Virus record (IMG/VR): IMGVR_UViG_3300044639_002247
Coordinates: 1-53,398 of that record
Length of the DNA stretch: 53,398 bases
Reading direction: 5' to 3' (one strand)
From: a virus
Lineage: Duplodnaviria > Caudoviricetes
Numbering within the stretch: position 1 is the stretch's first letter; every line of letters starts with the position of its first letter. Shown piece after piece: positions 31,302-51,268 of this stretch. The notes beneath the pieces are model-generated. The model saw only the letters and a program-made list of their open reading frames with translations, did not search any database and was not told where the DNA came from. Position numbers and translations under genes: made by a program.

Positions 31302-31309
31302 TATAAATA
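31302..31309 (+). promoter_or_regulatory. late promoter
   Basis: TATAAATA 6 nt before ATG 31316. Confidence 0.8.
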
Positions 31310-31315
31310 TAGCAT

Positions 31316-32686: not shown

Positions 32687-32688
32687 TT

Positions 32689-32696
32689 TATAAATA
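32689..32696 (+). promoter_or_regulatory. late promoter
   Basis: TATAAATA 5 nt before ATG 32702. Confidence 0.8.
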
Positions 32697-32701
32697 ATCT
32701 T

Positions 32702-35700: not shown

Positions 35701-36088
35701 CACGGTCGTGGGAGACTTTGAATTCCCGTTGAAAAATATTAATATTGAAAATATGTATGGATCGCAAGACGACGGCACGCCCGGCCTTCATGTTTTTGCC
35801 AAACCGCTTAGTTCAAATAACATTTATTCAGCTGGACGCGGGGAGGATGGAGAATTGGGTATAAATCAAGTTACAGATTCAACTTTTTTTGGCAGAGCTA
35901 TTTTCCCAGTAGGTTCTCAAATTATCGATATTATATGTTCGTTTTATACTGGGGTTGGCAGTGAAACGTGGGTTCGTACTGCAGATAACAAACTATATCA
36001 CACTGGCTATAGGAATTGGCTACATGGACCCAACGGCAGCAATAAATCTGCAGTATTTAGTAATGTTACTAATTTAGTGTGCGGCTAA
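32702..36088 (+). CDS. long tail fibre with C-terminal RCC1-like propeller
   Basis: GKVGIGTSAP, FEGSSADEFETTL..PTADRTITLP, repeated G.N..GQLG RCC1 motifs. Confidence 0.82.
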   Translation: MPVKITSLAPIDTIAQNDLIHIIDVGNKTMGDSGTNTHITAGAAANQLGALLTAVPAVIQTEIDEKANINNPIFTGNVTLPSTTSIGEVTAGEIAFVHDVTSPIQTQLDSKVPAFNSAFTGTITSSNNAAQSLTSAALHCTGTTGAILMDSAGHKRISWNDGDGNFNIRAGHYYNGTAVVYAKQSNENNGGAAAIAFGSDGADGNITMSAAPIGVSGTTVAWANNFILNKDAAYTDKNFGIGTTSPVDTLDANGSVVLRGNSAGAIMFAPKFGWAPYGTNYDRFEIYVDPNAQITTIGNSHGGTGVARALGLKTSGANRMTIMADGKVGIGTSAPTTALEVNGTITATAFSGSFVGQFSGNIATSTLAAKASTLAAGGGNGTAMTFNWVAGNPTNGQPLWLWGGSDAANMYVYNPSNFSVATATSATTATSAGSFTGSLAGDVTGTQGATTISAGTVTGKALTGYVSGAGTIAATDTILGAINKLNGNVGLKANIASPTLSGLTLSDSSIVFEGSSADEFETTLTVTNPTADRTITLPNVTGTIVTSGDTGSVTSTMILDGTINNADISTSAAIADTKLATISTSGKVANSATTATSNNNPNTIVTRDASGNFSAGTITGDVTGNVTGSSGYATTAGSCTGNAATASYATAAGSTINVRGVSKFPEKSNSGALLLGYGFTFIDSDNEIRAIGSSTAANALPATFDQYAPAGVYGPLFENIIPDKLYVNQQSAFVITTTGKVFAAGVNTSGGLGVAVVGETKTLLDVKLPDTEVCVKIALSAERNTQNTYFLTASGKVYVSGDNTRGQLGFAGRSTSYDATAPELTIGPGSPSQTTAVTDIQTVGSGSSHTAIALLSNGTVWVCGYGDYGQMGNGTSNAVNTTWTQVRTTGTTLGNIKKIYAAGADSKTSLYALDTNNRLWGWGNSSWGQLAQNNTNEQTYAVKVSDGVDKFWAFGASCFIKRLPGAEQAGIPGLNYSIGQIHSWGYNGYGQLGIGTTTNRTVVGDFEFPLKNINIENMYGSQDDGTPGLHVFAKPLSSNNIYSAGRGEDGELGINQVTDSTFFGRAIFPVGSQIIDIICSFYTGVGSETWVRTADNKLYHTGYRNWLHGPNGSNKSAVFSNVTNLVCG

Positions 36089-36188
36089 TTAATATTTTAA
36101 ACTAAAAACCACAACAATAAAAATACGACTATGCCATATAAAATCTCGTACTTTGTATAATTGGTTAGTATTAACATAAAATTTTCTA

Positions 36189-36196
36189 TATAAATA
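36189..36196 (+). promoter_or_regulatory. late promoter
   Basis: TATAAATA 19 nt before gp8 ATG. Confidence 0.75.
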
Positions 36197-36215
36197 CATT
36201 AAATAATAACACCTT

Positions 36216-37598
36216 ATGGCAGCAATCGTAACAGACTCTTTTCGTAGAAACAATGCGCAACTCTTTTTAGGGGATGTAGCGTCTAGCAGCACAAACTATT
36301 ATGTAGGACTCGGAAAATCTGATAAGTGGGTTCTTGATGAAGAAGCTTTACTTCCTGGTGACATTCCTCTTTCACTTGGAATAGAAGGTGACGACTCAGA
36401 TATAAAATCAAATCTAGTAACATTACTTAAGATTAATGATACTCATACGGAACTCGTAATTCCACATATAAAATGGAAAACTGGAGCATATTATAAAGCT
36501 TATAGCCCATATGATCTAGATTGTTTTTATCCGGGTGTTCTCGAAGGTGATGCAGAAATAAATCCATGCTATGCAGTTGTAAGTGGTCGCATCTACCTTT
36601 GCCTTCAACGCGGTGTAGGAGTTACAGCTGGTATTCCAGTAGCAACTGACTATCGCGCAACAATATATGCCAATGACGGCTATGTTTGGATGCTTGTTGA
36701 TAATGTATCAACTGCGTTATCAAAATTAATTACTGACCAGTTTATTAACATAACTTCTGGAGTTGTACCACAAACCATTGCCCCATCTATTGAGGCCAGT
36801 GGAGGAGGGTTACTATACGGTTTTAGTGTGATGTCGGGTGGCTTAGGTTATGGCTCACTCAACGAGGTTACATTTGTTGCTCAATACTCTGATGGCAGTG
36901 AGCTTGAAATTGAGTGTGGAGCGATAGCAGATGCAACTACTGGAGTGCTTAAAAATGTGTTACTACCACCTGATTGGTCATACACCGCAGTCGGTTCAAA
37001 ACGAATAGTAAGCGGTTACTTTAAAATAGATTCAACTGGTTCAGGCGCTGTTATAGTTCCTCACATCGCGCCACTACTCGGCTTTGGTTATGAACCTTCA
37101 AAAATATTACCATCGTGGTTTATAGGAATTGCAGTTGATGCAGTTGATAGTATTTCAAGTGACGGGTTCTATATCCCGTATCGTCAAATTTCGGTTTTAA
37201 GAAATGTTGAATATACTGAAAATAGTAGTCCAGACACTCTTGGTGCACTTCGTTACATTACAATCCCAACTCCCCCATCTGCTGGAATTTCAGTAGGAGA
37301 CAAGTTAACGTTTGGAACAACTGGTATAACCGCATATTTTGATTCATATTCTAGTGTTGAGATTGCTGGAGTAACTTCACGCCGAATATACTTTCATCAA
37401 AATTCAACAACTGGGTTTGGAGCTATTCCAAGTACTGGTACAGTTACTGACTCTAAAGGTACGTCTGTGCAATATAGTGCAGTAAGTAATAACGAATATA
37501 TTCCTCACAGTGGTAAAGTAGTATTTACTGAAAATCGTAAACCGATTAACCGCCAAAGCGGACAAACTGAAGAAATTAAGATTATTATACAATTCTAA
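36216..37598 (+). CDS. 8: baseplate wedge gp8-like
   Basis: MAAIVTDSFRRNNA, IYLCL, DGYVW, YRQISVL, SGKVVFTENRKPINR..QTEEIKIIIQF. Confidence 0.85.
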   Translation: MAAIVTDSFRRNNAQLFLGDVASSSTNYYVGLGKSDKWVLDEEALLPGDIPLSLGIEGDDSDIKSNLVTLLKINDTHTELVIPHIKWKTGAYYKAYSPYDLDCFYPGVLEGDAEINPCYAVVSGRIYLCLQRGVGVTAGIPVATDYRATIYANDGYVWMLVDNVSTALSKLITDQFINITSGVVPQTIAPSIEASGGGLLYGFSVMSGGLGYGSLNEVTFVAQYSDGSELEIECGAIADATTGVLKNVLLPPDWSYTAVGSKRIVSGYFKIDSTGSGAVIVPHIAPLLGFGYEPSKILPSWFIGIAVDAVDSISSDGFYIPYRQISVLRNVEYTENSSPDTLGALRYITIPTPPSAGISVGDKLTFGTTGITAYFDSYSSVEIAGVTSRRIYFHQNSTTGFGAIPSTGTVTDSKGTSVQYSAVSNNEYIPHSGKVVFTENRKPINRQSGQTEEIKIIIQF

Positions 37599-40500
37599 TG
37601 TCTATTACATCATACAACACAATCTATCATGATGATTATATTTCATCCGGGAATGACGATAAAAATTATCTTCGCGTATTATTTAAACCAGGTTACAGTG
37701 TACAGGTAAGAGAACTAAACCAGTTACAATCTTCTCTACAAGATCAAATAAACCGGTTGGGTGGCAGCGTATGGAAAGCTGATACTGCCGTAGTTGGTGG
37801 CGGTACTTCCTTTTTACCTGAATTATTTTCATTGACCTTTGACCTCTCAACCGCAGAGTTAAATGTTGCTGGAAATGTTCTTACGCTTGCAGAGATTGCC
37901 GAAGCCGCTAAATCCATTGCCTACCTCGATAGCACATTACGTGGCGAGATACTCGGTTATGTTAAGCGTGAGGATGCAAAATATACATTCTACTTTAACT
38001 ATACAAATACTGATGAGGATGGCGTTGGTGTATTTGGTGGAGAGTTTGAAAATGGTTATAAACTTATACTACGTTCGAGTGACACCTCTTTGCCAGAGAG
38101 CGAATTACCAGTAGTAAACTATGTCTCATATGTTAGTGAGGGCCCTGCTTCAGGATTAGTCTGCGAAGAGGGAGTCTTTTATACAAAGGGATCTTTCGTG
38201 GCACTGCCGCGCCAAACATTTTTTATTGATAAAACCGAGACTGACGAGTCTTTAACGGGTTATGCTGTATTAAAGATTGATGAAAATATCACAACATACT
38301 TTGATGATTCTAGCCTATTAGACAACGCTAATGGTACACCAAACTATAGTGCACCTGGTGCAGATCGATACTCAATTGATCTAACTTTAGACTGGATAAC
38401 TTCTGATGACTATGAGACTAGCACAGATTCATATATAAAATTATTGGTAATAAAGGCTTCGCGTCCAGTTGAAATTGTTGAGACTGCTGAGTATACTGAA
38501 ATTATTGATATACTCGCAAAACGTACAAGTGAAGAGTCTGGAAACTATACTGTAAATCCATTTCCTATAGGCATTCGCGAAACCTTTGATGGTGATAACC
38601 TGCCAGTTGACTGCATTGTCGTTGGTCGCAAGTATCGTATTCAAGATCTTGGTGTAACAACCGGCGAACTTACTAATTGGGTAGGTTTAGGAGCAACTGC
38701 GCCCGTGAGTGTTGGATCAGAGTTTACTGCGGTTAAGTATGCAAGCACGGAAAATACCAGCACAACCGCATTTGTTAACGGAGGAAAAGTAAGCGATCTT
38801 GCTTATCCATACGGTGCGTATCAAGCTGATAATTTAGATCAAATCGGATATGATATTACATCAACTGAAAAAAAAGTTAATGCAATAGAAAGTGCGCGAG
38901 ACCAGTATACAGTCACACTCGACTCTTCAGTTGCATATGTTGATGGCTATCGGGTTGCACTTAATAAGAGCTTAAATGTTACTTCTAAAAAGGCGCGGGA
39001 CGAGGCAGAATTATTAACTAGCATCAGCGCAACAACGGGTAGTTACTTTATTGGTACTATCCAAACAGCCAATACGGATGATTCCACGTTTCCAACAATA
39101 TCAACAGTTACAAATGTTTATAATTTGTATGCATACGAAGATAACGCCGATATTACAGCAACCCCACCAGAAGAGAGCGCCTCAGTTGTAAAGATTGGAA
39201 CTTGTCGTATAAAGGCATTTGAATCTGTTACTGGTAGCAGTTTGTATCGTTGTTATGTGTATGACGTAGAATTTACTGGCGCGTCTACTGCAGAATGGAA
39301 TGCTCGACGATTTGATAATGTTGAGCAGATTTATGGGCATAACTTTATGTTTAATATTGATACCGCGAATAACGGTACTTTGTTAGAAGCAACGGGTGAC
39401 ACCGCGATTTTCCAATGTCCATATCCACAGTCGCGTCAAATGAGTAATACTACGTTTTATGCACAACGACTGTTTACTGGCACAGTTCCATCAACTGGAA
39501 CTCCATCAATTACTCTTTCAGTAAGTGGCGGTAGAATATTTACTGATACTAGTGATGTATTGGTAATGATAGCTGGTGACATAGCATCATCTACTACAGT
39601 TAGTCCATCGGGTGACCTCACAACATTAACTATAACTGGCACGGAAGTGACAGCTTCAGCTAAATATTCGGTACTTGCAAAAATAGCCGTAACAAATGCT
39701 GATAATATTGCGCGGGTCACCAAAAGTCGCAAGATAGTTAGTGATACAATAGTGGGCGGTGGCATCAATGGGAGAATATTCTCATTACAAAATACAGACG
39801 TAATCCGAATAGTTTCAGTAAACACCATCGACGGCGACAGTAAAGACATTACATCACTATTTAAGCTTATAGATGATGGTCAGCGTAATAGTATTTACAC
39901 AAATGCCCGCGTGCAATATTCAGGTCTACCGTTCACTGAAACTATTGAAATTGAGTATGAATATTATGAACGTCTTGGTGGCGTCGGGCGGGATCTGGTA
40001 ATGTATAATGTTGATTCATATAGATCAAATAACAACAGTGTCGGCACAGCATATGAAAATATACCTACATACAAGGGGGTAAGTCTTTCAGATGTGATAG
40101 ACTTTAGACAGGATGTAGTGTATCCAGTAACTAATGGAGTAGCTGGAATAACTGCCATAGCAAATACAAATAAAAGTCAAATTGATCCAAATACGCCAAT
40201 TACTTCACTTATTAAATTTTACTTACCTCGGATCGACGCGGTTACAGTAAATTCCGGCGGAGAATTTACTATTATAAATGGTGTCTCATCCCTGACCCCA
40301 GTTGAGCCGTCTGTGCCTAAAAATTCGATGACGCTCTATACCTTAAAGGTTCCAGCATACACGCCAAATGTATCTGATATAGTTAAAGTATATAATGACA
40401 ATCGTCGTTATACTATGCGTGATATTGGTGCAATTGAAAAGCGTATTAGTAATATAGAGTATTATACGTCACTTTCACTTCTTGAACGTTCAGCCACAGA

Positions 40501-43384
40501 AAAAAATATATTTGATGACGTGGGTGCACGTTTTAAAAATGGTATTTTAGTTGATAACTTTATTGGTCATGGCGTGGGAGATGTATTTAATCCAGACTAT
40601 AGTTGCTCAACTGATCGTGAAAATGGAATTTTGCGTCCACGCTATAATACGTACAACTCTGATCTTGCTATCGATAGTCCACAAATTAGTATAAATGGAA
40701 GTATTTCAAAACTAGTAGATGATGGGAAAATAAGAGTTCATGACAGCATTATTACCTTAAACTACAATGAAGTTGAACTTATATCACACCTAAAGGCGAC
40801 CGCTCATATTAGTGTACATCCTCATGTCTATGCAAAAATTAATGGACACATACGTCTGTCACCAGCAGCAGATAACTGGAAAGATACTGTTACCCGCCCA
40901 GACCTTATTGTAACTGACGATAGCGCATTTGACGCAATTAAATTTATTGCTGAAGACCCCGCGCTTGACATACTTGGTTCAGACTGGAATAACTGGGAAC
41001 GTGAATGGGGCGGCACCACAACTACAAGAGCTCCACTCCGAAACTGGCGCAGACGTGGTACAACTACGACTACTGTGCAAGAATTTACTGAGTCTCGTGA
41101 GGGCACAAACACTACTCTTGGATCTACATTTGTTCCAAAAAGTCTTGGAACAAATGTTGTAGACACTGTAATTATACCATTTATTCGCTCACGAATTGTC
41201 TATTTCCACGCTACTGGCTTAAAGGCGTCTACGCAAGTCTATCCTTTCTTTGAAGATCGTGACATATCGGCATACACAAATCAAGTAATTGGTAATGATA
41301 GCACAAAATTTATTGTGCCTTCAACAATAAATGATAATAGTACTCGTATATTTAATAACATACTATCAGCGGATCTACCAGCTCCATTGAGTGGATATAC
41401 TCCATATGGTACCACACTAAAAACAGATTCAGCGGGAGAACTCTATGGATCATTTATTATACCAAATAATACATCAATGCGTTTTCGCACTGGTGATCGT
41501 GTTTTTAAATTAACGGATGACTCGCGAAATGCTTCTTCAGAAACTTCGTATGCATTTTCAAAATATAACGCGAGCGGAATACTTGAAACGGTGCAAGAAA
41601 CTATACTTTCAACCAAAACCCCGCAATTTGCAGTAACCCCGATTGAAGAAGAGCGTTCTGGTAGTGTGACTACAACTACGACTGCATATCATGACCCACT
41701 TGCTCAGTCATTTATAATTAGTACAGATGACTATCCAACCGGGGTGTTTATAACATCAGTTGATATATATTTTGCTGAAAAAGCACGTTTACAACCAGTT
41801 GAAATTTATATTGTAACAATGACAAATGGAGCTCCTACTCGCACGGTTGTTCCATATTCAAGGGTTTTCCGCCGTCCAAGTGAAGTGCAAGTCAGCGCAA
41901 ATGGTTCAGCAGCAACAAACTTTAAATTCAGTGACCCAGTCTTTTTGAAGACCGGCGAAGAGTATTCAATAATTGTATCATCGAACAGTGGAGACTATCG
42001 TTGCTGGTATGCAATACTTGGTGAAACAGACGTAGTTTCTGGCAAACGTATTGAAAAGCAAGAGTATCTTGGAACGTTCTTTACGAGTGCAAATGCATAT
42101 ACGTGGACTCCTCAACAAGAACAAGACCTTAAATTTCGCATTAACCGTGCAGAATTTTTTAATATCGGTTCTACATCAAAGTCAGGAGATATACAATTTA
42201 GAACAAATCTGCATAGCGGCGTAGATAAAATAACAATAGAGGAACCCGGTGTTGGTTATAGTTTGCCACCCGCTATAACATTTGATCCGTCAAATGGCGG
42301 TGCTCGTGCCTCCGCGGTACTAAATCCAATTGATGGCAGTATTTCAGAAATAATACTGCATGATCGTGGATCTGGATATTCAGCCGCCGTCGATATCGTA
42401 GTTACACCTGTAGTCGGCAGTCAGACTCCCACCACAGTCGCTACTATTCGCGCCAAACTCGCGGAAATTCCAGTATCAATGTTTAATTTACGCCAACCAA
42501 GCTTAACATTTAACAGTACTGCAATAGATTATAGCATACAATTTAAATCCGAAACTCCTAAAAAATTCGAAACAGCGGCAAATATATATTTGCCTAGCAG
42601 TTATGGTAACTTAAATTCGCATACATTAAATGTAATTGGGCAAAATCAGTTGTTTGGGCCTCGAGCTCTTATAACTGCAAGCCTAACAACTACAGACCGC
42701 GCAATATCTCCAATTATTGATGTTGACGGATCATCATTACTTACTGTTACAAATCTTATAAATTCTGACAGTACAGATGAAGCATACGCTCGCTATCAAA
42801 GTGGAACTGCAACTGGAGGAACCGTTAATACTTTAATTGACAACGCAAAATCTTGGGTCGTCAATTCATTGGTAGGAAACACATTAAAAATTACAAGTGG
42901 TACCTATATTGGAACAGTATATCGAATTACTGATAATACCGATACTCAAATTACATTTAGTCCTAGTACCGGAGCACCGGGAACCGAGGGAATTATTTCT
43001 ACTAACACATATAAAATATTGATTCCTGAACGGCGAGGCGCAGCTCTTGCTCGATATATTACTCGTAAAGTTGTTTTAAATTCTCCTTCTGATTGGTTAA
43101 ATGTTTATATATCGACTAACCGCCCAACTGATCAAACTGATATTAAGGTGTATGTAAAGTTAGGATTTGATACTACAACATCAGATGATCTAATTGATTG
43201 GCAGGAATTAACACCAAGAGTGCCTATTCCTATTAGCAGCGACCCTAATAAATATAGTGAAAGCGAGTATAAAATTGATCCTAATGATGATTTTATTTCT
43301 TTCCAAGTTAAAATTGTGTTGCTATCAAATAATATTTTTGATATTCCAACGATTCGTGACTTTAGAGCAATTGCAACAGTATAA
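37598..43384 (+). CDS. large virion structural protein (DUF4815/VrlC-like)
   Basis: YLRVLFKPG..VQVRELNQLQ, APGADRY, RYTMRDIG.IEKRI..IEYYTSLSLLE, DPLAQSF; follows gp8. Confidence 0.82.
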   Translation: MSITSYNTIYHDDYISSGNDDKNYLRVLFKPGYSVQVRELNQLQSSLQDQINRLGGSVWKADTAVVGGGTSFLPELFSLTFDLSTAELNVAGNVLTLAEIAEAAKSIAYLDSTLRGEILGYVKREDAKYTFYFNYTNTDEDGVGVFGGEFENGYKLILRSSDTSLPESELPVVNYVSYVSEGPASGLVCEEGVFYTKGSFVALPRQTFFIDKTETDESLTGYAVLKIDENITTYFDDSSLLDNANGTPNYSAPGADRYSIDLTLDWITSDDYETSTDSYIKLLVIKASRPVEIVETAEYTEIIDILAKRTSEESGNYTVNPFPIGIRETFDGDNLPVDCIVVGRKYRIQDLGVTTGELTNWVGLGATAPVSVGSEFTAVKYASTENTSTTAFVNGGKVSDLAYPYGAYQADNLDQIGYDITSTEKKVNAIESARDQYTVTLDSSVAYVDGYRVALNKSLNVTSKKARDEAELLTSISATTGSYFIGTIQTANTDDSTFPTISTVTNVYNLYAYEDNADITATPPEESASVVKIGTCRIKAFESVTGSSLYRCYVYDVEFTGASTAEWNARRFDNVEQIYGHNFMFNIDTANNGTLLEATGDTAIFQCPYPQSRQMSNTTFYAQRLFTGTVPSTGTPSITLSVSGGRIFTDTSDVLVMIAGDIASSTTVSPSGDLTTLTITGTEVTASAKYSVLAKIAVTNADNIARVTKSRKIVSDTIVGGGINGRIFSLQNTDVIRIVSVNTIDGDSKDITSLFKLIDDGQRNSIYTNARVQYSGLPFTETIEIEYEYYERLGGVGRDLVMYNVDSYRSNNNSVGTAYENIPTYKGVSLSDVIDFRQDVVYPVTNGVAGITAIANTNKSQIDPNTPITSLIKFYLPRIDAVTVNSGGEFTIINGVSSLTPVEPSVPKNSMTLYTLKVPAYTPNVSDIVKVYNDNRRYTMRDIGAIEKRISNIEYYTSLSLLERSATEKNIFDDVGARFKNGILVDNFIGHGVGDVFNPDYSCSTDRENGILRPRYNTYNSDLAIDSPQISINGSISKLVDDGKIRVHDSIITLNYNEVELISHLKATAHISVHPHVYAKINGHIRLSPAADNWKDTVTRPDLIVTDDSAFDAIKFIAEDPALDILGSDWNNWEREWGGTTTTRAPLRNWRRRGTTTTTVQEFTESREGTNTTLGSTFVPKSLGTNVVDTVIIPFIRSRIVYFHATGLKASTQVYPFFEDRDISAYTNQVIGNDSTKFIVPSTINDNSTRIFNNILSADLPAPLSGYTPYGTTLKTDSAGELYGSFIIPNNTSMRFRTGDRVFKLTDDSRNASSETSYAFSKYNASGILETVQETILSTKTPQFAVTPIEEERSGSVTTTTTAYHDPLAQSFIISTDDYPTGVFITSVDIYFAEKARLQPVEIYIVTMTNGAPTRTVVPYSRVFRRPSEVQVSANGSAATNFKFSDPVFLKTGEEYSIIVSSNSGDYRCWYAILGETDVVSGKRIEKQEYLGTFFTSANAYTWTPQQEQDLKFRINRAEFFNIGSTSKSGDIQFRTNLHSGVDKITIEEPGVGYSLPPAITFDPSNGGARASAVLNPIDGSISEIILHDRGSGYSAAVDIVVTPVVGSQTPTTVATIRAKLAEIPVSMFNLRQPSLTFNSTAIDYSIQFKSETPKKFETAANIYLPSSYGNLNSHTLNVIGQNQLFGPRALITASLTTTDRAISPIIDVDGSSLLTVTNLINSDSTDEAYARYQSGTATGGTVNTLIDNAKSWVVNSLVGNTLKITSGTYIGTVYRITDNTDTQITFSPSTGAPGTEGIISTNTYKILIPERRGAALARYITRKVVLNSPSDWLNVYISTNRPTDQTDIKVYVKLGFDTTTSDDLIDWQELTPRVPIPISSDPNKYSESEYKIDPNDDFISFQVKIVLLSNNIFDIPTIRDFRAIATV

Positions 43385-43389
43385 AATTT

Positions 43390-43620
43390 ATGGCAACTCG
43401 TAAAAAAATAAAAGTAGAAGACAATCCTTCATTGGAGAGAGATTCCTTTTCAGGCGCAATTTTAAACTCGGACATAACTGCATATACATCAGCGGTGCGT
43501 CGTAAAAAACGTATGCGCAGTCAAGAGCAGCTAATTGCTGAGTTAAGTAGAAAAGTTGGAGAATTATTGCTTTGGAAAGAAGAAATAATCAAATTATTAG
43601 CAAAAAAAGAGAATAAATAA
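43390..43620 (+). CDS. small conserved hypothetical protein
   Basis: KVEDNPSLERD..SGAILN, C-terminal coiled coil. Confidence 0.72.
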   Translation: MATRKKIKVEDNPSLERDSFSGAILNSDITAYTSAVRRKKRMRSQEQLIAELSRKVGELLLWKEEIIKLLAKKENK

Positions 43621-43625
43621 ACATA

Positions 43626-46600
43626 ATGGATTCAATTCAATTTTCAGAGTTTTCTACGACTGGTGTTAATAATAGTGATACTTTTGACGTCTGGCGTAAA
43701 AAGACGAATGGTGTTATAGGTCAACTTGTTACTATAAATGATAGCATTTCACCATTATTCTACGGGGCAGGACAAACGCAGTCTGCATTGCTACGAACAG
43801 TTACGTTAGATGATTCTCAAACAATAACCGGAGCAAAAACTTTCTCGGGTGGTACAAAGGCTTTTCCAATTTTAAAAGTTGGCACTGCTGGATTCTATGA
43901 AGATAGTGGAGTTTTGGGAACTACTGGAGCATTTATTAGTGACCGAATAATAATTAATTCTGAGTTACAATTTGGTACACATTCTTATACAATTCCAAAT
44001 AACAATCCGGTAGAATCTTCACTATTAGAAAAGTCTGGTAATAGTTTATCATGGAAGACACTAAGTAGCATAATTTCTGTTATACAGCAGGAGGGGGCAG
44101 TAAATGTTGTTACTACAAATATAGTATTGCCTGTTGGTTCAATTATTGACTATGCTGTTTCGGCTGGAAGCGTTCCATCAAATTGGTTACGTCTCAGCGG
44201 AGGTCGTTTTAAAGGCGGAGACTATCCAGAACTTGCTGCTCTTATACTCAATGCGTATGGTATCATTTATACAACACAAACTGGCACTACACAGGCGCCA
44301 ACAGTTTCATATAATTCTAACTGGTGGTATACGTTACCTAATACGTCTGGCAAAATTATAAAGGCAGTTGCTGATTCAGTAGTTAATACCTTTATAGATC
44401 GTGGTAATGCCTTTGATATAATCAAAAATGGATCATCAATACAGTCTTTATCACTTGCAAATGGTGGTACTGGAATTTTAAATTTAAGGCATGACAATAC
44501 CTTACGTATTGACACGGCTACCCGCGAACTTGGTGTGGCTCCATTTTCAGTTGGTGCAGATAAAATAGCATCTAACGCGATTGATCCTAGTAAACTCAGT
44601 TTTGGGGGTCCTTCATGGGACACTAGCAGTTCATTATATGAGGGAAGCGATCCCAATACCCGGGCTCGCGTTGCTACTCGCGACTATGTTGACTCAAAAA
44701 TATCTAAAGCTGGACCAGTTAAAAAATTGGTGTCTCGCTTAGCATCTAACCCGCATTCATCTGCCCCAGCTTTTGGAGAATTTTGTTATATAAATCATGA
44801 TGGCGTGCCAATTATAACTGGCGTAAATACGAGCAGCCGTTTTGGTTTTGCTGATAAATATGCGCACACTGAAATGCCACTTCCAGACAACCGCCACGCA
44901 GTTGAGTTACATGTCGGCTATGATCATATGTGTGCTCTAGACGAAACTGGAGAGTTATGGGCGATTGGTAATAATAGTTACAATAAGTTTAATATTGTGC
45001 CGGGCGGCGATTCGATCACCCGCGCCATATGGACGAAAGCTTTTACTCCACTCTATACGTATAGTACAAACAATAAAATTCGCAAAGTTATACTCTCGGG
45101 TGACATCACTACAACTAATGTTGCTGTTATTGATACTTCAAATCGTTTGTGGATAGCTGGCAGAAATTATGCTGGAGTGCTTGGCCGCGGCGTCTCAGGT
45201 GACGCGACTAGCACTAACACCAAACCGGCGGGTGAAGCTACTCCAGTTTTAGAAAATGTGCTTGACGCGTTTCTAGTTGGATCCTCTGCATATGAAGTAT
45301 GTATTGCGCTAACTTCAGCCGGAATACATATGTCTGGTTATGGCGGAGTTGGACAAAATGGGATTGGTAATTCCAATGTTGCTAACGGTACCTTTAATAC
45401 AATACCAATAGATGGAATTTCTAATTATGGCGCGTGCAGTATATACGGTTCAGGCGAAGATCAATATACAACAATATACGTAAAAACCCCAAATAACTTA
45501 GTTTATGGTTGGGGTTATAATGGAAATAGTGTTTTAGGAAATGGTGGCACCGCAACTATAACACGCCCAACAGCAATCTTCGATAATCCAGATTTAAATA
45601 TTGATAGTTTGTATACTAATGTCAATAAAGGTCCTATTGACAAGACCGGGACGTATGCAGATGAAGCTGCAACAGGCGCGGCCTATATTTCTGGCGTAAG
45701 GAATAATGCGACTGCTCCTCGAGGAGCAACTATACAAAGCACAGTGGCCGGACATACATTAGGGACATCAATTAGTTCAAGTGATTCTGGTAATATAATC
45801 GCTGTTGGGGCTCCTGGCGCAAATGGACGGGTACAATGCCATGTTTACACCAATAATGTATGGTCAAACTATGGGCCAGTTATATCTGGCGCCGAGACTC
45901 TCTCATTATTTGGCCAATCTGTAAGTTTAAATTCTGAAGGATCACGACTTTGTATTGGTGTGCCAGACGGCCAATTAGTTGGTTCTTCGCGATCCGGTCA
46001 AGTGCGTATATATGACTATTCTATACAGGGCGCATCATGGATGCAACGTAACCTTTCATTTAATGGCGAGTTGGCTGCGTCTAAATTAGGATCATCTGTT
46101 GCATTATCTGGAGACGGCAATACATTTATTGCTGGAGCTCCGGGTTATAATAGCAACACCGGAAGAGTCTATATCAGACGAATAACTGCTACAGGAACTG
46201 AGACAGTTGGTGACCCTATAACAGGTACTGCAGCAAGTCAACAATGCGGCATAAAGGTTGCAATTAATACTTCAGGAACAGTAATAGCAATTGCCTCAAA
46301 TGGTATATCAACAGCGGGCGTTGTAAGAGTGTATACTCTAGTTGGTGGTACTTGGGTACGGGTCGGAGGTGATATAGTAGGAAGAGCTGCTACAGATGAC
46401 GCGATTAATATTTCTTTAAATGGTGCTGGTACTCTATTGGTGGTCGGTGCCCCGGGATCTGATATTGCAGGATCTAATAGCGGATCGACCCGAGTATTTA
46501 GTTATAATCCACAAACACTGGAATGGGTTCAACTTGGTGCTGATATACTTGGCCAATCAGTAAATGAAAGTAGTGGTTCAAGTGTTGCATTTTCACGCGA

Positions 46601-47315
46601 CGGCGCAGTTTTAGCAGTTGGCGCACCAGGTGCTGATGCTCTTAATCTTACTGATAATGGTGTCGTTCGACTATTTAAGTATGACGACAATAAATGGAAA
46701 CTATTAACGGCAGCACTCATTGGAACAATGGCTGGCGAAGGGTTTGGTAGAGCGGTTGCTATTTCAGCAACTGGTACAAATATTTTAGCGAGCTCGCCAA
46801 CATGGAACTCTAGCCGCGGCCAAGTGAATTCAATAGGGTTTGTGAGTGCGCCGACTATTTCATACGAAGTATGGTGTACAGGAACTAATACTGGAAATAA
46901 ATTTTCATTTGCTGGAAATGTAACTACGTGGAGACGTGTTGGAGAGCTTCCAACTGGATATGCTATTGAAGACTTTTGGCCTGGTAGTGGTTACTATGCT
47001 AATAGCGTTAACTTTATAAAGGCTAGGCGTTTGTTGGATGGTATTAATTATTTATTTGTTGTTGGTGCAAACTCGAGGTATGAATCTGGGTATGGTAATA
47101 AGACTGTCTTAAATACCTGGACGCGCTTAAATTTACAATCGCATATAGTGGATCGTATAATTGATATACAATCAGTAAGTCCTTATGCTGGCGAAGCCTA
47201 CACAATTTTACACCTAAATGACGGCACTCTCTACTTTGCGGGTTATAATAGTTATAGCATTGATCCAAATTTACCAACTAGTACTTACAGAACAAACTTT
47301 ACACGCATAAAATAA
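43626..47315 (+). CDS. fibre/adhesin with collar-like, RCC1-like and FG-GAP-like domains
   Basis: N-terminal DTFDVWRKKTN; LPVGSII..YPELA; RCC1 motifs; S.DG..LAVGAPG repeats. Confidence 0.78.
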   Translation: MDSIQFSEFSTTGVNNSDTFDVWRKKTNGVIGQLVTINDSISPLFYGAGQTQSALLRTVTLDDSQTITGAKTFSGGTKAFPILKVGTAGFYEDSGVLGTTGAFISDRIIINSELQFGTHSYTIPNNNPVESSLLEKSGNSLSWKTLSSIISVIQQEGAVNVVTTNIVLPVGSIIDYAVSAGSVPSNWLRLSGGRFKGGDYPELAALILNAYGIIYTTQTGTTQAPTVSYNSNWWYTLPNTSGKIIKAVADSVVNTFIDRGNAFDIIKNGSSIQSLSLANGGTGILNLRHDNTLRIDTATRELGVAPFSVGADKIASNAIDPSKLSFGGPSWDTSSSLYEGSDPNTRARVATRDYVDSKISKAGPVKKLVSRLASNPHSSAPAFGEFCYINHDGVPIITGVNTSSRFGFADKYAHTEMPLPDNRHAVELHVGYDHMCALDETGELWAIGNNSYNKFNIVPGGDSITRAIWTKAFTPLYTYSTNNKIRKVILSGDITTTNVAVIDTSNRLWIAGRNYAGVLGRGVSGDATSTNTKPAGEATPVLENVLDAFLVGSSAYEVCIALTSAGIHMSGYGGVGQNGIGNSNVANGTFNTIPIDGISNYGACSIYGSGEDQYTTIYVKTPNNLVYGWGYNGNSVLGNGGTATITRPTAIFDNPDLNIDSLYTNVNKGPIDKTGTYADEAATGAAYISGVRNNATAPRGATIQSTVAGHTLGTSISSSDSGNIIAVGAPGANGRVQCHVYTNNVWSNYGPVISGAETLSLFGQSVSLNSEGSRLCIGVPDGQLVGSSRSGQVRIYDYSIQGASWMQRNLSFNGELAASKLGSSVALSGDGNTFIAGAPGYNSNTGRVYIRRITATGTETVGDPITGTAASQQCGIKVAINTSGTVIAIASNGISTAGVVRVYTLVGGTWVRVGGDIVGRAATDDAINISLNGAGTLLVVGAPGSDIAGSNSGSTRVFSYNPQTLEWVQLGADILGQSVNESSGSSVAFSRDGAVLAVGAPGADALNLTDNGVVRLFKYDDNKWKLLTAALIGTMAGEGFGRAVAISATGTNILASSPTWNSSRGQVNSIGFVSAPTISYEVWCTGTNTGNKFSFAGNVTTWRRVGELPTGYAIEDFWPGSGYYANSVNFIKARRLLDGINYLFVVGANSRYESGYGNKTVLNTWTRLNLQSHIVDRIIDIQSVSPYAGEAYTILHLNDGTLYFAGYNSYSIDPNLPTSTYRTNFTRIK

Positions 47316-47316
47316 T

Positions 47317-49320
47317 ATGGCAATAGATTATAAAAAAATAGTTTTAAAAAATAGTGCGACTCCCGGTGCGATTCCGATCCCGGATTTTTTAAGTAGTGGT
47401 GAACTTGCATTAAACTATGCAGACAATAAAATATATTATAAGACTCTCGATGGCAGCATTGTGGTTCACGAGACTCCAGATATTGATGTTGATCCTAGCC
47501 CAAATTCAATTGTCCGCCGGAACCTAGATGGTTCTGGTATATTTAATGGTGTGATTAGTGAAAGCACTGATGCTGATATCTATAGCATATATGCTACACA
47601 CAGTACGTGCACTGCCGCAAAAATTATTAATACTGGACTGTGTGCTGGAGCAGAAATATCATCTGACCTTGGAACCGGAGCAGAAATAAGCAGTATATCT
47701 GGAACCGGAGCAATAATAAGCAGCAACACATCTGGAACCGGAGCAATAATAAGCAGTATATCTGGGACTGGAGCAGAAATAAGCAGCAACACATCCGGAA
47801 CTGGAGCAATAATAAGCAGCACATCTGGAACGGGAGCAATAATAAGCAGTGTATCTGGTATTAGTTTGTCTGCGTCATCTGAAACAGAAACTGGAGCAAT
47901 AATAAGCAGCACATCTGGAACGGGAGCAGAAATAACAAGTTTTAGTGGAACCGCCGCAGAAATCTATACCGAAGATGGAGACTATCATGCAACGTTTGGC
48001 GATCCAAGCGTGAATGTTCTCGGGATTAGCAATAATGACAATGGTTCGGTTGACATTGATTGGTTAACTGTGTCTAATGAAATTATTACTTCAACTAGTA
48101 AATTAAAGTCGGGAGCTACGGCTAATCAGACATGGACACTGCCCAATGAGACTGGTACATTGGCTACTAAAGAATACGTAAATATACTCGCGCAAGGTCT
48201 ACATATTCATGCTTCTGTGCACGTTATCTTAAAAACTTCTCTTGAAAGTTTGGGTGCAGGAACGGTCACATACACCAACGGGACTGCAGGTGTTGGAGCG
48301 AAGTTGACGTTACAAAATCCTTTGACTCAGGCGATGCTCGATGGCGATCCAGATGCGCTTACAGTAGGTGCCCGAATAATTGTTGCCGGACAAAGCAATC
48401 AAGCTATTAATGGAATATATACATATTCGACAAGTACAGAATTGATTCGCGCTACGGATTTTGATGAACCAGCAGAAGTTGCAGGTGGAGATTTTGTGTT
48501 CGTCACGCATGGTACTATCGGCGCTAATACTGGATGGGTATTATCTGAGAAAGTCACGTCTATTAGTTCAACTGGCAGTCCTTTCATTTTCCAACAATTC
48601 TCTGGAGTCGGAACGTTTACTGCCGGTAATGGTTTAACATTGGTGGGTGGAACTGATTTTAATGTTAACTCTACTACGCTCACGGTTGGCGCCGATGCAG
48701 TCGACTTAGCCTCTGGAATCGCAACAGCTGGTACATATCAAAGCGTCACGGTCGATACATACGGCAGAGTCACAGCTGGCACCAACCCAACAACCGTAAC
48801 GTATACCGCTGGTAACGGCTTAACATTGGCGGATGGAACTGATTTTAATGTTAACTCTACTGGAGCCGGTTCACTTACAGTTGGGGCAGATACAATCAAC
48901 CTGACATCTGGCATCGCAACAGCTGGTACATATAAAAGCGTCACGGTCGATACATACGGCAGAGTCACAGCTGGCACCAATCCAACGACACTTGCCGGTT
49001 ATGGTATAACAGATGCAGTAAATGCGGTTGCGACTATTGTACCGATTAGCGCAGCAACTGAATTTATTTCTACTGATAATGCAAAAATATTCCATGTATC
49101 TGGCACAACTACATTGACACTCCCGTCTGCCGGTTCCATTCTAGACGGATGGAGCATTGGTATTGTAAATGTCGGAGGAGCTCCATTAACGGTTAATCGC
49201 AGTTCTACCGATACTATCAATGGCGCATTGACTACTTTTAGCAATACCGTACCATATTCCGCCTTTTACATTTACAAGTCGAGCTCTAGCACATTTGTCG
49301 CAATAGGTATATTGTATTAA
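47317..49320 (+). CDS. tail fibre protein
   Basis: GELALNYADNKIYYK N-terminus, RATDFD, VTVDTYGRVTAGTNPTT x2, TLAGYGITDA. Confidence 0.82.
   Translation: MAIDYKKIVLKNSATPGAIPIPDFLSSGELALNYADNKIYYKTLDGSIVVHETPDIDVDPSPNSIVRRNLDGSGIFNGVISESTDADIYSIYATHSTCTAAKIINTGLCAGAEISSDLGTGAEISSISGTGAIISSNTSGTGAIISSISGTGAEISSNTSGTGAIISSTSGTGAIISSVSGISLSASSETETGAIISSTSGTGAEITSFSGTAAEIYTEDGDYHATFGDPSVNVLGISNNDNGSVDIDWLTVSNEIITSTSKLKSGATANQTWTLPNETGTLATKEYVNILAQGLHIHASVHVILKTSLESLGAGTVTYTNGTAGVGAKLTLQNPLTQAMLDGDPDALTVGARIIVAGQSNQAINGIYTYSTSTELIRATDFDEPAEVAGGDFVFVTHGTIGANTGWVLSEKVTSISSTGSPFIFQQFSGVGTFTAGNGLTLVGGTDFNVNSTTLTVGADAVDLASGIATAGTYQSVTVDTYGRVTAGTNPTTVTYTAGNGLTLADGTDFNVNSTGAGSLTVGADTINLTSGIATAGTYKSVTVDTYGRVTAGTNPTTLAGYGITDAVNAVATIVPISAATEFISTDNAKIFHVSGTTTLTLPSAGSILDGWSIGIVNVGGAPLTVNRSSTDTINGALTTFSNTVPYSAFYIYKSSSSTFVAIGILY
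47645..47965 (+). repeat. 30/33-bp tandem repeats (TGA[EI]ISS[IT]SG)
   Basis: Repeated GGAACCGGAGCAATAATAAGCAG units. Confidence 0.88.
48620..48987 (+). repeat. duplicated fibre segment
   Basis: AGNGLTL..GTDFNVNST..SGIATAGTY.SVTVDTYGRVTAGTNPT x2. Confidence 0.85.
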
Positions 49321-49321
49321 T

Positions 49322-49522
49322 ATGAACATACTAGATTTTAAACGTGCTATCACAGCTCAACCACTATTTGATGGTTTTTGGACATTTGATTCAACTGCAA
49401 GTGCATTAAGCGGTTTTACAATAACAACAAGTAATCCCAGTGAAATCGTAATAGTATGGGGTGATAATACCACTTCAACTGTAGCATCATCACCTGTCGT
49501 TACATCACATACCTATAGTTAA
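49322..49522 (+). CDS. small protein ending in PKD-like half-domain
   Basis: WTF..LSGFTITTS..IVWGD..SHTYS; paralogous to gp7-like C-terminus. Confidence 0.7.
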   Translation: MNILDFKRAITAQPLFDGFWTFDSTASALSGFTITTSNPSEIVIVWGDNTTSTVASSPVVTSHTYS

Positions 49523-49565
49523 AAATCTTGTGACGGAATAAATAATTTTCAATATATATAGTAAT

Positions 49566-50657
49566 ATGCCAAGTCGATCAATCACATTGTTACCGCAAAA
49601 TGGTAATGCATCAATCACTACAATTAATTGTGGAAGTAGTTTTTCAAGACTTGGAGGAGTTGTAGACGTTTCAGCTTTTCTGAATTTAACAAATTTTACT
49701 TGTAATAATAATAATATAACTGAGATTTCGGGTTATTCTAATAACAGCAACTTAATAACTTTATCATTTGTTGATAATTTACTTACTGAAAGTTTGCCGT
49801 CTTTAAGTGGGATGACCAATTTACAAGAATTTAAATATAATCGAAATCAGATTAGTGGAAGCATTCCCCCCAGTTTAAGTGACTTGGCAGCATTACGAAT
49901 TTTCCAAGGTTTTAATAATGCGCATACTGGAAGCATCCCCAGTTTAAGTAGTCTTGTTAATCTTCGAATCTTCCAGTGTGATTTAAATAATCTAACTGGC
50001 ACTATTCCAGCTCTTAATGCAAATACAGAGCTTACTAGTTTTTCTTGTAATTCTCAAAGAGGCGCAACAAAACTTACTGGGTCTATTCCAAGCTTGGCCG
50101 GGTTGACGAATTTACTAAATTTCTATTGTTATAACAATCAACTGTCTGACTTTGCAGGTGGTTCGGTATCAAATAAGTTAGGCGATTTTAAAGCTCAAAA
50201 TAATCTATTACCAGCATCAGCGGTAGACGCGATATTATCAGCCTTTGTTACCGCCAATAAAACAACTGGAACAAGGATACTAAGCTTACATGGTAATGGA
50301 AATGCATCTCCGACTAGTGTAGGGGTAATCAAAACAACATTGAGTGGAACTGCTTTTTCACGATCTGACACAACTGTTACAGTCAACTCTACGGCACATG
50401 GATATGTCACAGGTGATTATGTAACAGTTAAAGATATAGCAGAAACTGATTTCCAAGGAACATTTGCAATAACTCGTATAAACGACAATACGTTTCAATA
50501 TACAACACTTACAACTGGGGCATTAACTGGATCTGGAACCGCAACGTTGCGAAAAACATCCACTGGCAATACTAGCGGATTTAGAAGTTATCAAAATCTT
50601 GCTCTTGTATCGCGAACGGGCGGTCCATGGGACATAAACATTAATTTTCCGGCATAA
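49566..50657 (+). CDS. leucine-rich repeat protein
   Basis: Repeats LxxLxxFxxxxNxLTGSIPSL; C-terminal beta domain (HGYVTGDYVTV..FQGTF..NTFQY). Confidence 0.85.
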   Translation: MPSRSITLLPQNGNASITTINCGSSFSRLGGVVDVSAFLNLTNFTCNNNNITEISGYSNNSNLITLSFVDNLLTESLPSLSGMTNLQEFKYNRNQISGSIPPSLSDLAALRIFQGFNNAHTGSIPSLSSLVNLRIFQCDLNNLTGTIPALNANTELTSFSCNSQRGATKLTGSIPSLAGLTNLLNFYCYNNQLSDFAGGSVSNKLGDFKAQNNLLPASAVDAILSAFVTANKTTGTRILSLHGNGNASPTSVGVIKTTLSGTAFSRSDTTVTVNSTAHGYVTGDYVTVKDIAETDFQGTFAITRINDNTFQYTTLTTGALTGSGTATLRKTSTGNTSGFRSYQNLALVSRTGGPWDININFPA

Positions 50658-50660
50658 CTT

Positions 50661-50909
50661 ATGATAAAAACTTACAAACAGGCAGTAATAACAGTTGATG
50701 AAAATGTATGGGCATTTGTATATGATACAGATTCTAAGAAAATACTAATGGAACCTCAACAGTGTTCTGGAACATATACATGTTCTCAAACTCTTGTGAT
50801 TGCAGATAGTTTAGAAGAGTGTGAAGAATATATTGAAACTAATGCTATAACAAACAGTTTATATGAAGTTATGCCAGCTGATGAAGAATATATTGAACCT
50901 GAGTCTTAA
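50661..50909 (+). CDS. small acidic protein (LRR-cassette partner 1)
   Basis: W.F.Y..EP.Q.SG.Y.C..LV.AD.LEEC; paralog of 51017..51253. Confidence 0.75.
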   Translation: MIKTYKQAVITVDENVWAFVYDTDSKKILMEPQQCSGTYTCSQTLVIADSLEECEEYIETNAITNSLYEVMPADEEYIEPES

Positions 50910-50920
50910 TAAATAGTAAT

Positions 50921-51016
50921 ATGTCAGTTATTACACTACGACCGGTTGGCTCTAGTACACTCTACACCGCTAAGGAGGCGGACCGTGTAGCGTAACAATA
51001 GACCAACCATCATGGC
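50921..51016 (+). pseudogene. internally deleted remnant of a second LRR-cassette gene
   Basis: MSVITLRP.. (cf. MPSRSITLLP) with stop at 50995; out-of-frame GGPCSVTIDQP (cf. LRR C-terminus GGPWDININFP); same ATAGTAATATG start context. Confidence 0.55.
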
Positions 51017-51253
51017 ATGATTACCGAGCATAAATTAACTATAATTGATGTAACAGCTGACAAGTGGTTGTTATTCTATAATGAGGAAACAAATATTATG
51101 TTATGTGAACCATTTCAGGGCAGCGGGTCGTATATATGTGCATCTGTTTTAGTAGTGGCGGACACGCTTGAAGAATGTAATGCATTTATCGCGCAGAAAA
51201 AAATAGCAAACCCGTTTAGGTTTGTACAAGATAACACACCAGAATCTGAATAA
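51017..51253 (+). CDS. small acidic protein (LRR-cassette partner 2)
   Basis: Paralog of 50661..50909. Confidence 0.75.
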   Translation: MITEHKLTIIDVTADKWLLFYNEETNIMLCEPFQGSGSYICASVLVVADTLEECNAFIAQKKIANPFRFVQDNTPESE

Positions 51254-51260
51254 GATCATT

Positions 51261-51268
51261 TATAAATA
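51261..51268 (+). promoter_or_regulatory. late promoter
   Basis: TATAAATA 5 nt before ATG 51274. Confidence 0.8.

Follow-up and report, generated by a model that had tools for sequence, protein, structure and literature searches.

A candidate split cap domain as docking joint for an LRR tail protein in a marine T4-like phage

Why should two proteins encoded 21.3 kb apart in one phage genome come to an end at the same residue of the same motif, and what does it mean that the gene following one of them encodes an LRR protein that opens with a strand-forming sequence? This question is raised by IMG/VR record IMGVR_UViG_3300044639_002247, classed here as a marine T4-like phage, of which we analysed the whole stretch of 53,398 nucleotides (the window, about 32% of the genome by estimate). 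We refer to the module that ends in HTYS as the socket and to the N-terminus of the LRR protein as the plug. The initial annotation had posited two sockets and two plugs; we find two homologous sockets and one significant plug, and the second supposed plug is a 24-codon ORF, so that the window holds two sockets, one intact plug and what is probably the relic of a second LRR gene (Table 1).

Table 1. Positions in the window of the features discussed in the text
Feature	Position	Strand	Description or basis
gp7-like baseplate wedge protein, 978 aa	25291..28227	+	ends ...HTYS*
Second socket, C-terminal ~50 residues of gp7-like protein	28072..28227	+	BLASTP, six-frame and profile matches
Socket protein, 66 aa	49322..49522	+	N-terminal peptide and socket module, stop directly after H-T-Y-S
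Spacer, 43 nt, from socket stop (TAA) to plug ATG	49523..49565	+	flanking ORFs in different frames
Plug, residues 1-23 of LRR protein	49566..49634	+	predicted strand-turn-strand inserting into socket
LRR protein, 363 aa	49566..50657	+	plug, LRR solenoid, C-terminal beta domain
Small acidic companion protein 1, 82 aa	50661..50909	+	paralogy; linkage to LRR stop
24-codon ORF MSVITLRP..., probable relic	50921..50995	+	5' likeness to LRR gene
Small acidic companion protein 2, 78 aa	51017..51253	+	paralogue of companion protein 1

The socket module and where it ends

The 66-aa ORF combines a short N-terminal peptide (MNILDFKRA..., kept in relatives) with the socket module at residues ~17-66, and this module is homologous to the C-terminus of the gp7-like protein. 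BLASTP aligns residues 19-66 of the former with residues 930-978 of the latter (25 of 49 identical, 51%, E 1e-10), and the alignment reaches the last residue of both proteins, which confirms the initial observation that the two chains end in the same motif. A six-frame search of the whole record detected only two socket sites, the ORF itself (E 1.9e-41) and the gp7-like C-terminus (E 7.6e-10), and a socket profile matched the second at E 2.5e-18. The point at which the module ends is likewise conserved: 10 of 11 small relatives of the 66-aa protein (67-127 aa) stop 0-2 residues past H-x-Y, and W46, D48, H63 and Y65 do not vary across 12 sequences. At the level of sequence, truncation after H-x-Y is a trait of the family, and the small socket proteins are a conserved family. 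A locus search with the 66-aa protein as single query gave one related locus. At locus L005 the gene order is that of the window (socket protein, LRR protein, small acidic protein) and the socket protein has the same N-terminus plus a propeller insert of ~390 aa. When longer relatives of the 66-aa ORF were sought by word index, none came up, which is weak evidence by that method; the fused forms that it missed turned up later with the LRR protein as query.

The assignment of the socket to PKD/Ig-like domains, as first proposed, stands as far as the motif is concerned but is borne out neither by Pfam nor by fold searches. The four invariant residues form a PKD-like W-x-(F/G)-D-G ... H-x-Y motif, a pattern (W-G-D-G ... 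H-x-Y) shared with PKD repeats (PF00801 / PF18911), and the long matches of the 66-aa query are PKD-repeat proteins, in whose repeats ~30 residues, or two strands, continue past H-x-Y. However, the 66-aa ORF matched no Pfam family at E <= 0.1, and PKD was absent from the gp7-like and LRR proteins too; when the complete fused domain was compared with PKD repeats by hhalign, the match had a probability of 64.6% over 36 columns and stopped at H-x-Y. In fold searches PKD did not rise above noise either, and no clear solved relative emerged: Foldseek against the PDB gave nothing at E <= 0.001, the wide fold search with VIA peaked at Z 5.1, its rows being generic beta-sandwiches and jelly-rolls with no PKD among them, and BFVD gave a best E of 0.02, where the PKD-named entries amounted to two viral models, at E 0.11 and 0.36. 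PKD membership of the socket is thus unproven, a match at the level of the motif.

The LRR protein and its small acidic companions

The ORF downstream of the socket gene begins MPSRSITLLP and matches Pfam LRR_4 (PF12799) in three stretches (38.9 bits, where the cut-off is 27), with a weak additional match to E1_FCCH and PHROG matches to phrog_7816 and phrog_9998. Its solenoid extends to about residue 255 and is followed by a C-terminal beta domain at about residues 262-363; an AlphaFold2 model of one relative (P0062) has a regular strand ladder in the LRR part. The LRR protein is likely a host-binding tail protein, for which we infer a receptor-binding role and presence in the virion. A search of 50,697 deposited phage records gave no match to the region as DNA, nor by tblastn to the 66-aa ORF, the LRR protein or its relative P0039. 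A plug profile matched the LRR N-terminus at E 3e-14, the sole significant plug in the window. The ORF beginning MSVITLRP, which had been taken for a second LRR cassette, has 24 codons and no LRR, and the 24-column plug profile scores it at noise level (E = 8), so that the claim of a second cassette falls. The 11 bases upstream of this ORF and its first codons are similar to the LRR gene at its 5' end, and to judge from this likeness the ORF is probably a relic, left from the 5' end of another LRR gene that has been internally deleted.

The two small proteins that follow, both acidic by composition, are paralogues (27 of 70 residues identical, E 8e-18), as the initial annotation held. They match no Pfam or PHROG family and show no homology to a known family of tail-fibre assembly chaperones, and an Atlas search linked them with unnamed viral clusters only (score 0.79). 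The acidic protein is the third member of a linked set of genes: its homologue starts 0-44 nt from the LRR stop in 35 of the 38 non-duplicate IMG/VR loci considered below. This position suggests that it helps in assembly or acts as the LRR protein's partner.

Fused, split and solitary halves

A search for homologues in which both halves are fused had been suggested, and it succeeded. The LRR protein has 594 relatives; among the best 120, socket and plug lie in one chain in 25, while 80 start at the plug, in one the plug lies 12 residues from the start, and 14 lack a plug. One fused relative (P0062) is a counterpart of the whole pair, C-terminal domain included, and another (P0090) resembles a read-through of the split pair in which the Met of the second ORF is kept. 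In a census of 38 non-duplicate LRR genes from IMG/VR loci, 13 are fused and three more have a diverged socket upstream in frame; a separate socket ORF lies directly upstream in 12, and 10 have no adjacent socket. Socket carriers in this census are 75 to 612 aa long. Here as well the split point is conserved, with 11 of the 12 separate sockets ending 0-2 residues past H/K-T-Y/F and the plug ATG following 1-17 nt on, in any frame.

From these patterns we think it probable that a split N-terminal cap domain, rebuilt in trans, serves as the docking joint for the LRR tail protein. The 66-aa protein and the LRR protein would be two halves of one small beta-sheet domain, the same domain that in many relatives would form a single N-terminal cap before the LRR solenoid. 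The socket half, with about five short strands and its end at H-T-Y, would be borne by a carrier protein, here a minimal adaptor made of a short N-terminal peptide and the socket, and the LRR protein would supply the plug half as a strand-turn-strand at its very N-terminus (~23 residues). Once both chains are translated, the plug would enter between and beside the socket strands, and thereby rebuild the cap and tie the LRR protein to its carrier, with the small acidic protein as a third component, closely linked to them.

Some sockets have no plug in cis or in a neighbouring gene. In five gp7-like relatives an internal socket is followed by a proline-rich linker, one protein (P0024) has two tandem sockets, and a stand-alone socket protein of 81 aa adjoins an unrelated gene; at a further locus (L074) the socket is followed by a poly-serine linker and then a propeller. 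Sockets of this kind fit docking in trans and fit equally a self-stable socket, and together with the 10 LRR genes that have no socket beside them they are what speaks for a different reading, which we judge unlikely: that the socket is self-sufficient, for example a decorative or glycan-binding Ig-like unit, and that the shared ends reflect descent from a gene fission that left no lasting link to the LRR protein. The constancy of the split point, held within 0-2 residues in 11 of 12 adjacent pairs and 10 of 11 small relatives, argues against this reading, as does the contiguity of socket and plug in the 25 fused relatives.

Structure prediction weighs on the same side. Three runs of a complex model of the 66-aa protein with an LRR fragment gave ipSAE values of 0.83, 0.78 and 0.84, whereas the best of three controls stood at 0.01; contacts agreed by at least 93% between runs, with a partner pLDDT of 90-91. 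Of 80 solved complexes, 58 attained this ipSAE mark, as did 2 of 110 mismatched pairs, counts that apply here only approximately since our own alignments were used. On the LRR protein the modelled interface comprises residues 1-12 and 16-35; socket residues 43-46 pair with plug residues 6-9, and 32-34 with 20-23, while socket residues 20-22 pair with the first LRR strand (31-34). A structure of the pair would accordingly be expected to show plug strand 1 next to the socket strand that ends in W-G-D, and plug strand 2 next to the G-F-T-I-T-T strand. The 66-aa chain has a pLDDT of 73-76 with the LRR fragment and of 44-49 beside unrelated partners, and by this prediction would not fold well by itself. 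In AlphaFold2 models of fused homologues the strands of socket and plug share one confident domain (pLDDT 87.6, pTM 0.79), in which the two plug strands of the window's LRR protein recur. Both the interleaving of strands from the two chains and the loss of confidence beside unrelated partners count against a self-sufficient socket. The models thus favour two earlier suggestions, that the HTYS-ending segment is an incomplete module and that it has an interface with the LRR N-terminus. The proposal of donor-strand joining is modified: the LRR N-terminus is strand-forming and completes the socket module in the models, but it gives two strands, as a strand-turn-strand, rather than a single donor strand. 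The interface is a predicted one, and the complex score expresses model confidence; the model may just recognise the halves of a family seen fused, and its score favours a split domain more than it does binding in the cell.

A predicted joint and its place in the phage tail

The carrier of the second socket points to where such a joint may lie. The gp7-like gene directly follows a gp6-like gene, a position that fits a gp7-type wedge protein; its product matches phrog_17744, 'baseplate wedge subunit' (E 3e-14), and is a borderline HMM match to PF23786 (26.5 bits, just below the cut-off of 27). All nine of its closest relatives (57-100% identical, 966-1097 aa) end in a socket, and eight of them stop directly after H-x-Y-S/T. 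The gp7-like socket is probably a second docking port of the same kind on the baseplate, and a likely role can now be assigned to the conserved C-terminal tail of this protein; perhaps the LRR protein described here uses it.

Two homologous sockets facing one plug, the retention of the gp7-like socket in all nine close relatives, and a 66-aa protein that is hardly more than a socket would suit a further scheme, in which the 66-aa protein is a transient cap that stays outside the virion and the LRR hairpin is handed to the gp7-like socket in the manner of donor-strand exchange. We consider this quite unlikely, because in other phages the adjacent carriers are large and structural-looking (a 461-aa propeller protein, ORFs of 612 and 214 aa), which favours a permanent joint. 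The 12 split pairs (the window and 11 loci) have spacers of 1-43 nt, frame offsets of 0, 1 and 2 in four pairs each and an ATG start in every plug ORF, so the halves are separate cistrons and not products of recoding; readthrough, frameshift and bypass were rejected on these statistics. A single gene broken by mutation or assembly error, or rejoined in translation, is very improbable, since the fused homologues and the read-through-like P0090 that might suggest it are set against 12 independent pairs of this kind, a conserved family of small socket proteins, and a gp7-like protein whose terminal socket is followed by an unrelated fibre gene.

If the split cap is indeed a joint, it would resemble several known systems in part. 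In chaperone-usher pili (PapD/FimC and the pilins), an incomplete beta-sandwich is completed by one or more strands of another polypeptide in an intimate, non-covalent joint, and the predicted joint would have in common with these an incomplete sheet completed by strands of a second chain. The pilus, however, gives one strand, whereas here the distal LRR protein would contribute a two-strand hairpin, its N-terminus; no chaperone or usher is known for it, and fused single-chain versions coexist in relatives. Nor is a sequence relation or a clear fold relation to pilins seen: VIA gave only weak rows at Z 4-5, and the pilin-type rows, among them FmlH and CFA/I pili, had E > 0.9 or a Z of about 4. 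Branched tailspikes (G7C, CBA120, Klebsiella phages) and T4 gp10 on gp7 illustrate how receptor-binding proteins are attached in modular fashion, by way of an anchor or adaptor domain conserved at the N-terminus. The likeness is that a host-binding protein, distal and variable, hangs from a conserved module on the virion side, and that the two are encoded by neighbouring and easily exchanged genes; in those systems folded domains dock, whereas the joint proposed here is one domain cut in two, and the carriers of the same half-domain include a baseplate wedge protein, small adaptors and propeller proteins. LRR N-terminal caps, such as those of internalins, are small domains that shield the first solenoid repeat; in our models the first socket strand similarly packs on the first LRR strand, but this cap is all-beta and in most relatives comes from two separate gene products. 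A literature search at the level of titles and the beginnings of abstracts retrieved no paper on a split socket and plug arrangement.

A broader version of the proposal, unlikely in our estimation, is that the half-domain is a general docking port across a large group of uncultured T4-like phages, in which any protein with a hairpin start fits any socket (wedge ends, internal loops, adaptors, propellers) and the 66-aa protein is a holding cap that passes the LRR protein to the baseplate by strand exchange. If true, this would be a phage counterpart of the donor-strand exchange pathway of pili and a natural plug-and-socket standard for host-range change.

How interchangeable host-binding proteins are attached to a tail that is itself conserved is a central question of both host-range evolution and phage engineering. 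The family of ~67-aa 'hypothetical' proteins and the LRR proteins likewise gain a likely role; neither they nor the gp7-like C-terminal tail have a cultured-phage counterpart among the 50,697 records. The two halves, of about 23 and about 50 residues, are a candidate portable docking tag. Many uncultured T4-like phages of marine and fresh waters retain the split, and uncut versions persist in relatives; together, the split and uncut forms would offer a natural before-and-after record of a gene fission creating a protein-protein joint.

Probable half-domains ending in H-T-Y

The shared H-T-Y-S termini that the initial annotation had pointed out in the 66-aa ORF and the gp7-like protein were confirmed, and the two segments are homologous: residues 19-66 of the former align with residues 930-978 of the latter with 25 identities over 49 positions (E = 1e-10), and a six-frame search of the whole record with the 66-aa protein matched these two ORFs only. 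We call this putative half-domain, ending at H-T-Y, the socket, and the strand-turn-strand formed by the first 23 residues of the LRR protein, which is predicted to complete it, the plug. Searched exhaustively with HMMER, the 66-aa protein gave 25 matches at E <= 0.001, 11 of which are small proteins (67-127 aa). The stop codon falls 0-2 residues past H-x-Y in ten of these, one carrying a tandem pair of socket modules (P0024), and the eleventh extends 29 residues further. All nine closest relatives of the gp7-like C-terminal region (57-100% identity) end in a socket module, and eight terminate directly past H-x-Y-S/T. Truncation of the socket after H-x-Y is a family trait. Five of the nine gp7-like relatives (P0148-P0151 and P0153) also possess a second, internal socket (approximately residues 327-373) that leads into a proline-rich linker instead of further strands, an insert that the window protein does not have.

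Features of the window that bear on the socket and LRR genes
Feature	Position	Strand	Remark
gp6-like protein	23402..25288		
978-aa gp7-like ORF	25291..28227	+	ends H-T-Y-S, stop codon
Fibre protein	28249..30093		
1229-aa RCC1/FG-GAP protein			upstream of socket/LRR genes
667-aa fibre protein	47317..49320		upstream of socket/LRR genes
66-aa socket ORF	49322..49522	+	ends H-T-Y-S, stop codon
LRR ORF	49566..50657	+	above Pfam LRR_4 cut-off
C-terminal beta domain of LRR protein	50349..50654		residues ~262-363; weak Pfam E1_FCCH; phrog_9998
Small acidic protein	50661..50909		
24-codon ORF	50921..50995	+	5' likeness to LRR gene
Small acidic protein	51017..51253		
539-aa fibre protein			Peptidase_S74 chaperone domain; downstream of socket/LRR genes

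An N-terminal motif of the type ...(V/L)Y(L/M)G...LVWP lies directly before the socket in many proteins that have this module (P0022, P0024, P0049, P0062 and the socket protein of locus L075) and may be the true virion anchor. The 66-aa protein differs from this type in its start, MNILDFKRA, which is common to P0001, P0004, P0011, P0015, P0016 and locus L005.

The proposed likeness of the socket to PKD domains holds for the motif but not for membership in the PKD family: when profiles of the complete domain and of PKD repeats were compared, they aligned over 36 columns with 64.6% probability, the alignment ending at H-x-Y, and PKD repeats continue for about 30 residues beyond that point. Among four long HMMER matches of the 66-aa protein checked with Pfam, P0007, P0021 and P0010 are PKD-repeat proteins and P0006 contains 'atrophied Ig' repeats. 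We regard the PKD link as a motif-level lead. Foldseek found no match in the PDB at E <= 0.001. A Foldseek-independent fold search (best Z 5.1, 82 residues, rmsd 3.2) listed generic beta-sandwich and jelly-roll folds (carbohydrate-binding modules, Ena pilus subunits, lectins), and the rows from a viral model library, all weak (best E 0.02), included two proteins with PKD in their names as well as LRR proteins from uncultured phages.

Fused and split forms of the LRR protein

Homologues in which the two halves are fused, which the initial annotation had proposed to look for, do exist. Of 7,999 candidates scored, 594 are relatives of the LRR protein at E <= 0.001, and among the best 120 of these, scored with socket and plug profiles, 25 unite socket and plug in a single chain, 80 have the plug at the very start, one has it 12 residues in, and 14 have neither but other N-termini, several of them signal-peptide-like. 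In the fused proteins H/N-(T/K)-(F/Y/L) is followed by a few linker residues, a strand, a turn, a second strand ending I-N-C-G and the first LRR, which is the order of the window when its small ORF is read first and then the LRR ORF; the latter starts 43 nt past the stop of the former, in a different frame. P0062 is the fused counterpart of the entire window pair, including the same C-terminal domain. That extra beta domain is found in some LRR relatives only, and has low confidence in the AlphaFold2 model of P0062.

Scanning IMG/VR with 30 aligned plug-type LRR proteins yielded 67 loci. We left out 19 without a plug-profile match, in which the tblastn match mostly started well inside the protein or at the locus edge; the remaining 48 represent 38 non-duplicate LRR genes. 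Thirteen of these are fused, 12 have a separate socket ORF directly upstream, three have a long upstream reading frame with a diverged socket, and nine, plus one more at a locus edge, start with the plug without an adjacent socket. Eleven of the 12 adjacent socket ORFs terminate 0-2 residues past the profile end, the twelfth (L061) being diverged, and the socket carriers, as stop-to-stop frames, measure 75, 77, 81, 84, 92, 98, 98, 102, 121, 214, 461 and 612 aa. The junctions of the window and 11 of the 12 split loci have spacers of 1-43 nt, an ATG start of the plug ORF in every case, socket stops of TAA (11) or TGA (1), and all three frame relations (4, 4 and 4), statistics that argue against sequencing artefacts. 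A conserved recoding signal between the two ORFs is excluded by these spacers, the ATG starts and the evenly spread frames. Locus L005 has the gene order of the window (socket protein, LRR protein, small acidic protein), and its socket protein shares the first nine residues of the 66-aa ORF but has FG-GAP-like repeats of some 390 residues ahead of the socket, indicating that the 66-aa protein is a minimal form consisting of anchor peptide and socket.

Sockets also occur away from LRR genes. Five contigs, each with an LRR gene lacking an adjacent socket, were searched, and three contained one elsewhere: in an 88-aa frame that lies upstream of the LRR gene by 3 kb, in an 81-aa protein that ends H-T-F-E and adjoins an unrelated gene, and at the N-terminus of a 782-aa propeller protein, ahead of a poly-serine linker. 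No socket match was found in the other two, which are 22% and 26% complete. The 81-aa protein of L075 (rc) is the counterpart of the N-terminal part of the propeller protein of L074 (rc), a related contig, where the socket is joined through a run of 12 serines; this is a second fission/fusion pair of the socket module.

Gene neighbourhood

The second LRR cassette of the initial annotation was not borne out, the ORF having 24 codons and scoring at noise level as a plug (E = 8). The LRR gene start aligns with the bases upstream of this ORF and with its first codons, and the 3' part of the ORF is weakly similar to the end of that gene; we read the ORF as what remains of a second LRR gene whose interior was lost but whose companion small gene was kept. 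In locus L021 (1115..4955) two fused socket-plug-LRR genes lie in tandem, with a small acidic gene behind each of them; this is an undamaged form of the duplication, which seems to have been partly lost from the window.

The two small acidic proteins are paralogues, as had been suggested (39% identity, E = 8e-18). Among 38 non-duplicate LRR genes with at least 300 nt of downstream sequence, 35 are followed by a homologue that starts 0-44 nt past their stop codon, alike in fused and split loci. The protein has no family in Pfam or PHROG, and its Atlas neighbours are only unnamed viral proteins (score 0.79). Genes downstream of tail-fibre genes are often assembly helpers, and judged by its position the small acidic protein may be one as well.

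The record, 53,398 bases with an estimated completeness of 32%, encodes T4-like tail and baseplate proteins in one block of the + strand. Among cultured phages the gp6-like protein is closest to Methylophilales phage Melnitz (38% identity), followed by Pelagibacter myophages Mosig and HTVC008M (35%) and T4-like cyanophages (34%); with matches spread over these groups, a 'cyanophage' label for this virus is therefore not shown. Fibre-like genes lie on both sides of the socket/LRR region. The 667-aa fibre protein and that at 28249..30093 have in common a C-terminal domain ending ...FVAIG(I/T)LY or ...KVFDFI, which in L005 (2425..2781) stands alone as a 118-aa ORF directly before the socket protein. 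A single base separates the stop codon of the 667-aa gene from the start codon of the 66-aa ORF (TAA-T-ATG), a spacing suggestive of translational coupling. Eight sites (14703..51268) match the T4 late-promoter word TATAAATA, not above chance (7.6 expected); 7 of the 8 are on the + strand, and 6 of those 7 lie 12-27 nt 5' of ORF starts (22971, 28249, 31316, 32702, 36216 and 51274). No such site lies directly ahead of the 66-aa, LRR or small acidic genes; these would then share a late transcript that starts upstream.

The predicted joint and its meaning

A complex of the 66-aa protein (12-row alignment) and LRR residues 1-150 (30-row alignment), the modelling that the initial annotation had recommended, is predicted to form an interface, with ipSAE of 0.83, 0.78 and 0.84 in three runs against 0.01 for the best of three controls; in calibration, 58 of 80 solved complexes attained this mark, as did 2 of 110 mismatched pairs, figures that are rough here because we used our own alignments. 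At least 93% of contacts agree between runs, the partner pLDDT is 90-91, and that of the socket chain is 73-76 with the LRR partner versus 44 and 49 with unrelated partners. The lowest-error residue pairs (socket 43-46 with plug 6-9, socket 32-34 with plug 20-23, socket 20-22 with LRR 31-34) point to strands of both chains interleaving, the first socket strand packing on the first LRR strand. In AlphaFold2 models of fused homologues, socket and plug strands lie within one confident domain (P0062 residues 30-100, pLDDT 80-94); the isolated N-domain of L013 (pLDDT 87.6, pTM 0.79) has five socket strands, two plug strands and the first LRR strand, in that order. Recall of a solved structure is unlikely, since fold searches found no similar solved complex. 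The complex model may still reflect a learned fused family; that is the very point at issue and no independent proof.

Binding of the 66-aa protein to the LRR protein, by re-formation of a split cap domain in trans, is in our view likely. One N-terminal cap domain of an LRR tail protein would have been cut past the H-T-Y strand, its N-terminal half kept on a virion-side carrier and its C-terminal hairpin on the LRR protein, and the two halves would re-form the domain. In the model the rebuilt domain also covers the first repeat, so the LRR protein probably needs a socket for stability. The gp7-like wedge protein has a homologous segment, so the baseplate may offer a docking port too; that this socket takes the window's own LRR protein is a tentative proposal, somewhat short of an even chance.

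In pili, the sheet of one chain is completed by strands of another, as proposed for the window pair, and several phages hang receptor-binding proteins modularly on conserved adaptors, as proposed for its LRR protein. In a full-text literature search, we found no phage docking joint made of one domain cut in two, with fused and split forms coexisting and the half-domain also on a baseplate wedge protein. Hence, while strand completion and modular attachment of receptor-binding proteins are already known from pili and phages, respectively, a split-domain phage docking joint is apparently new.
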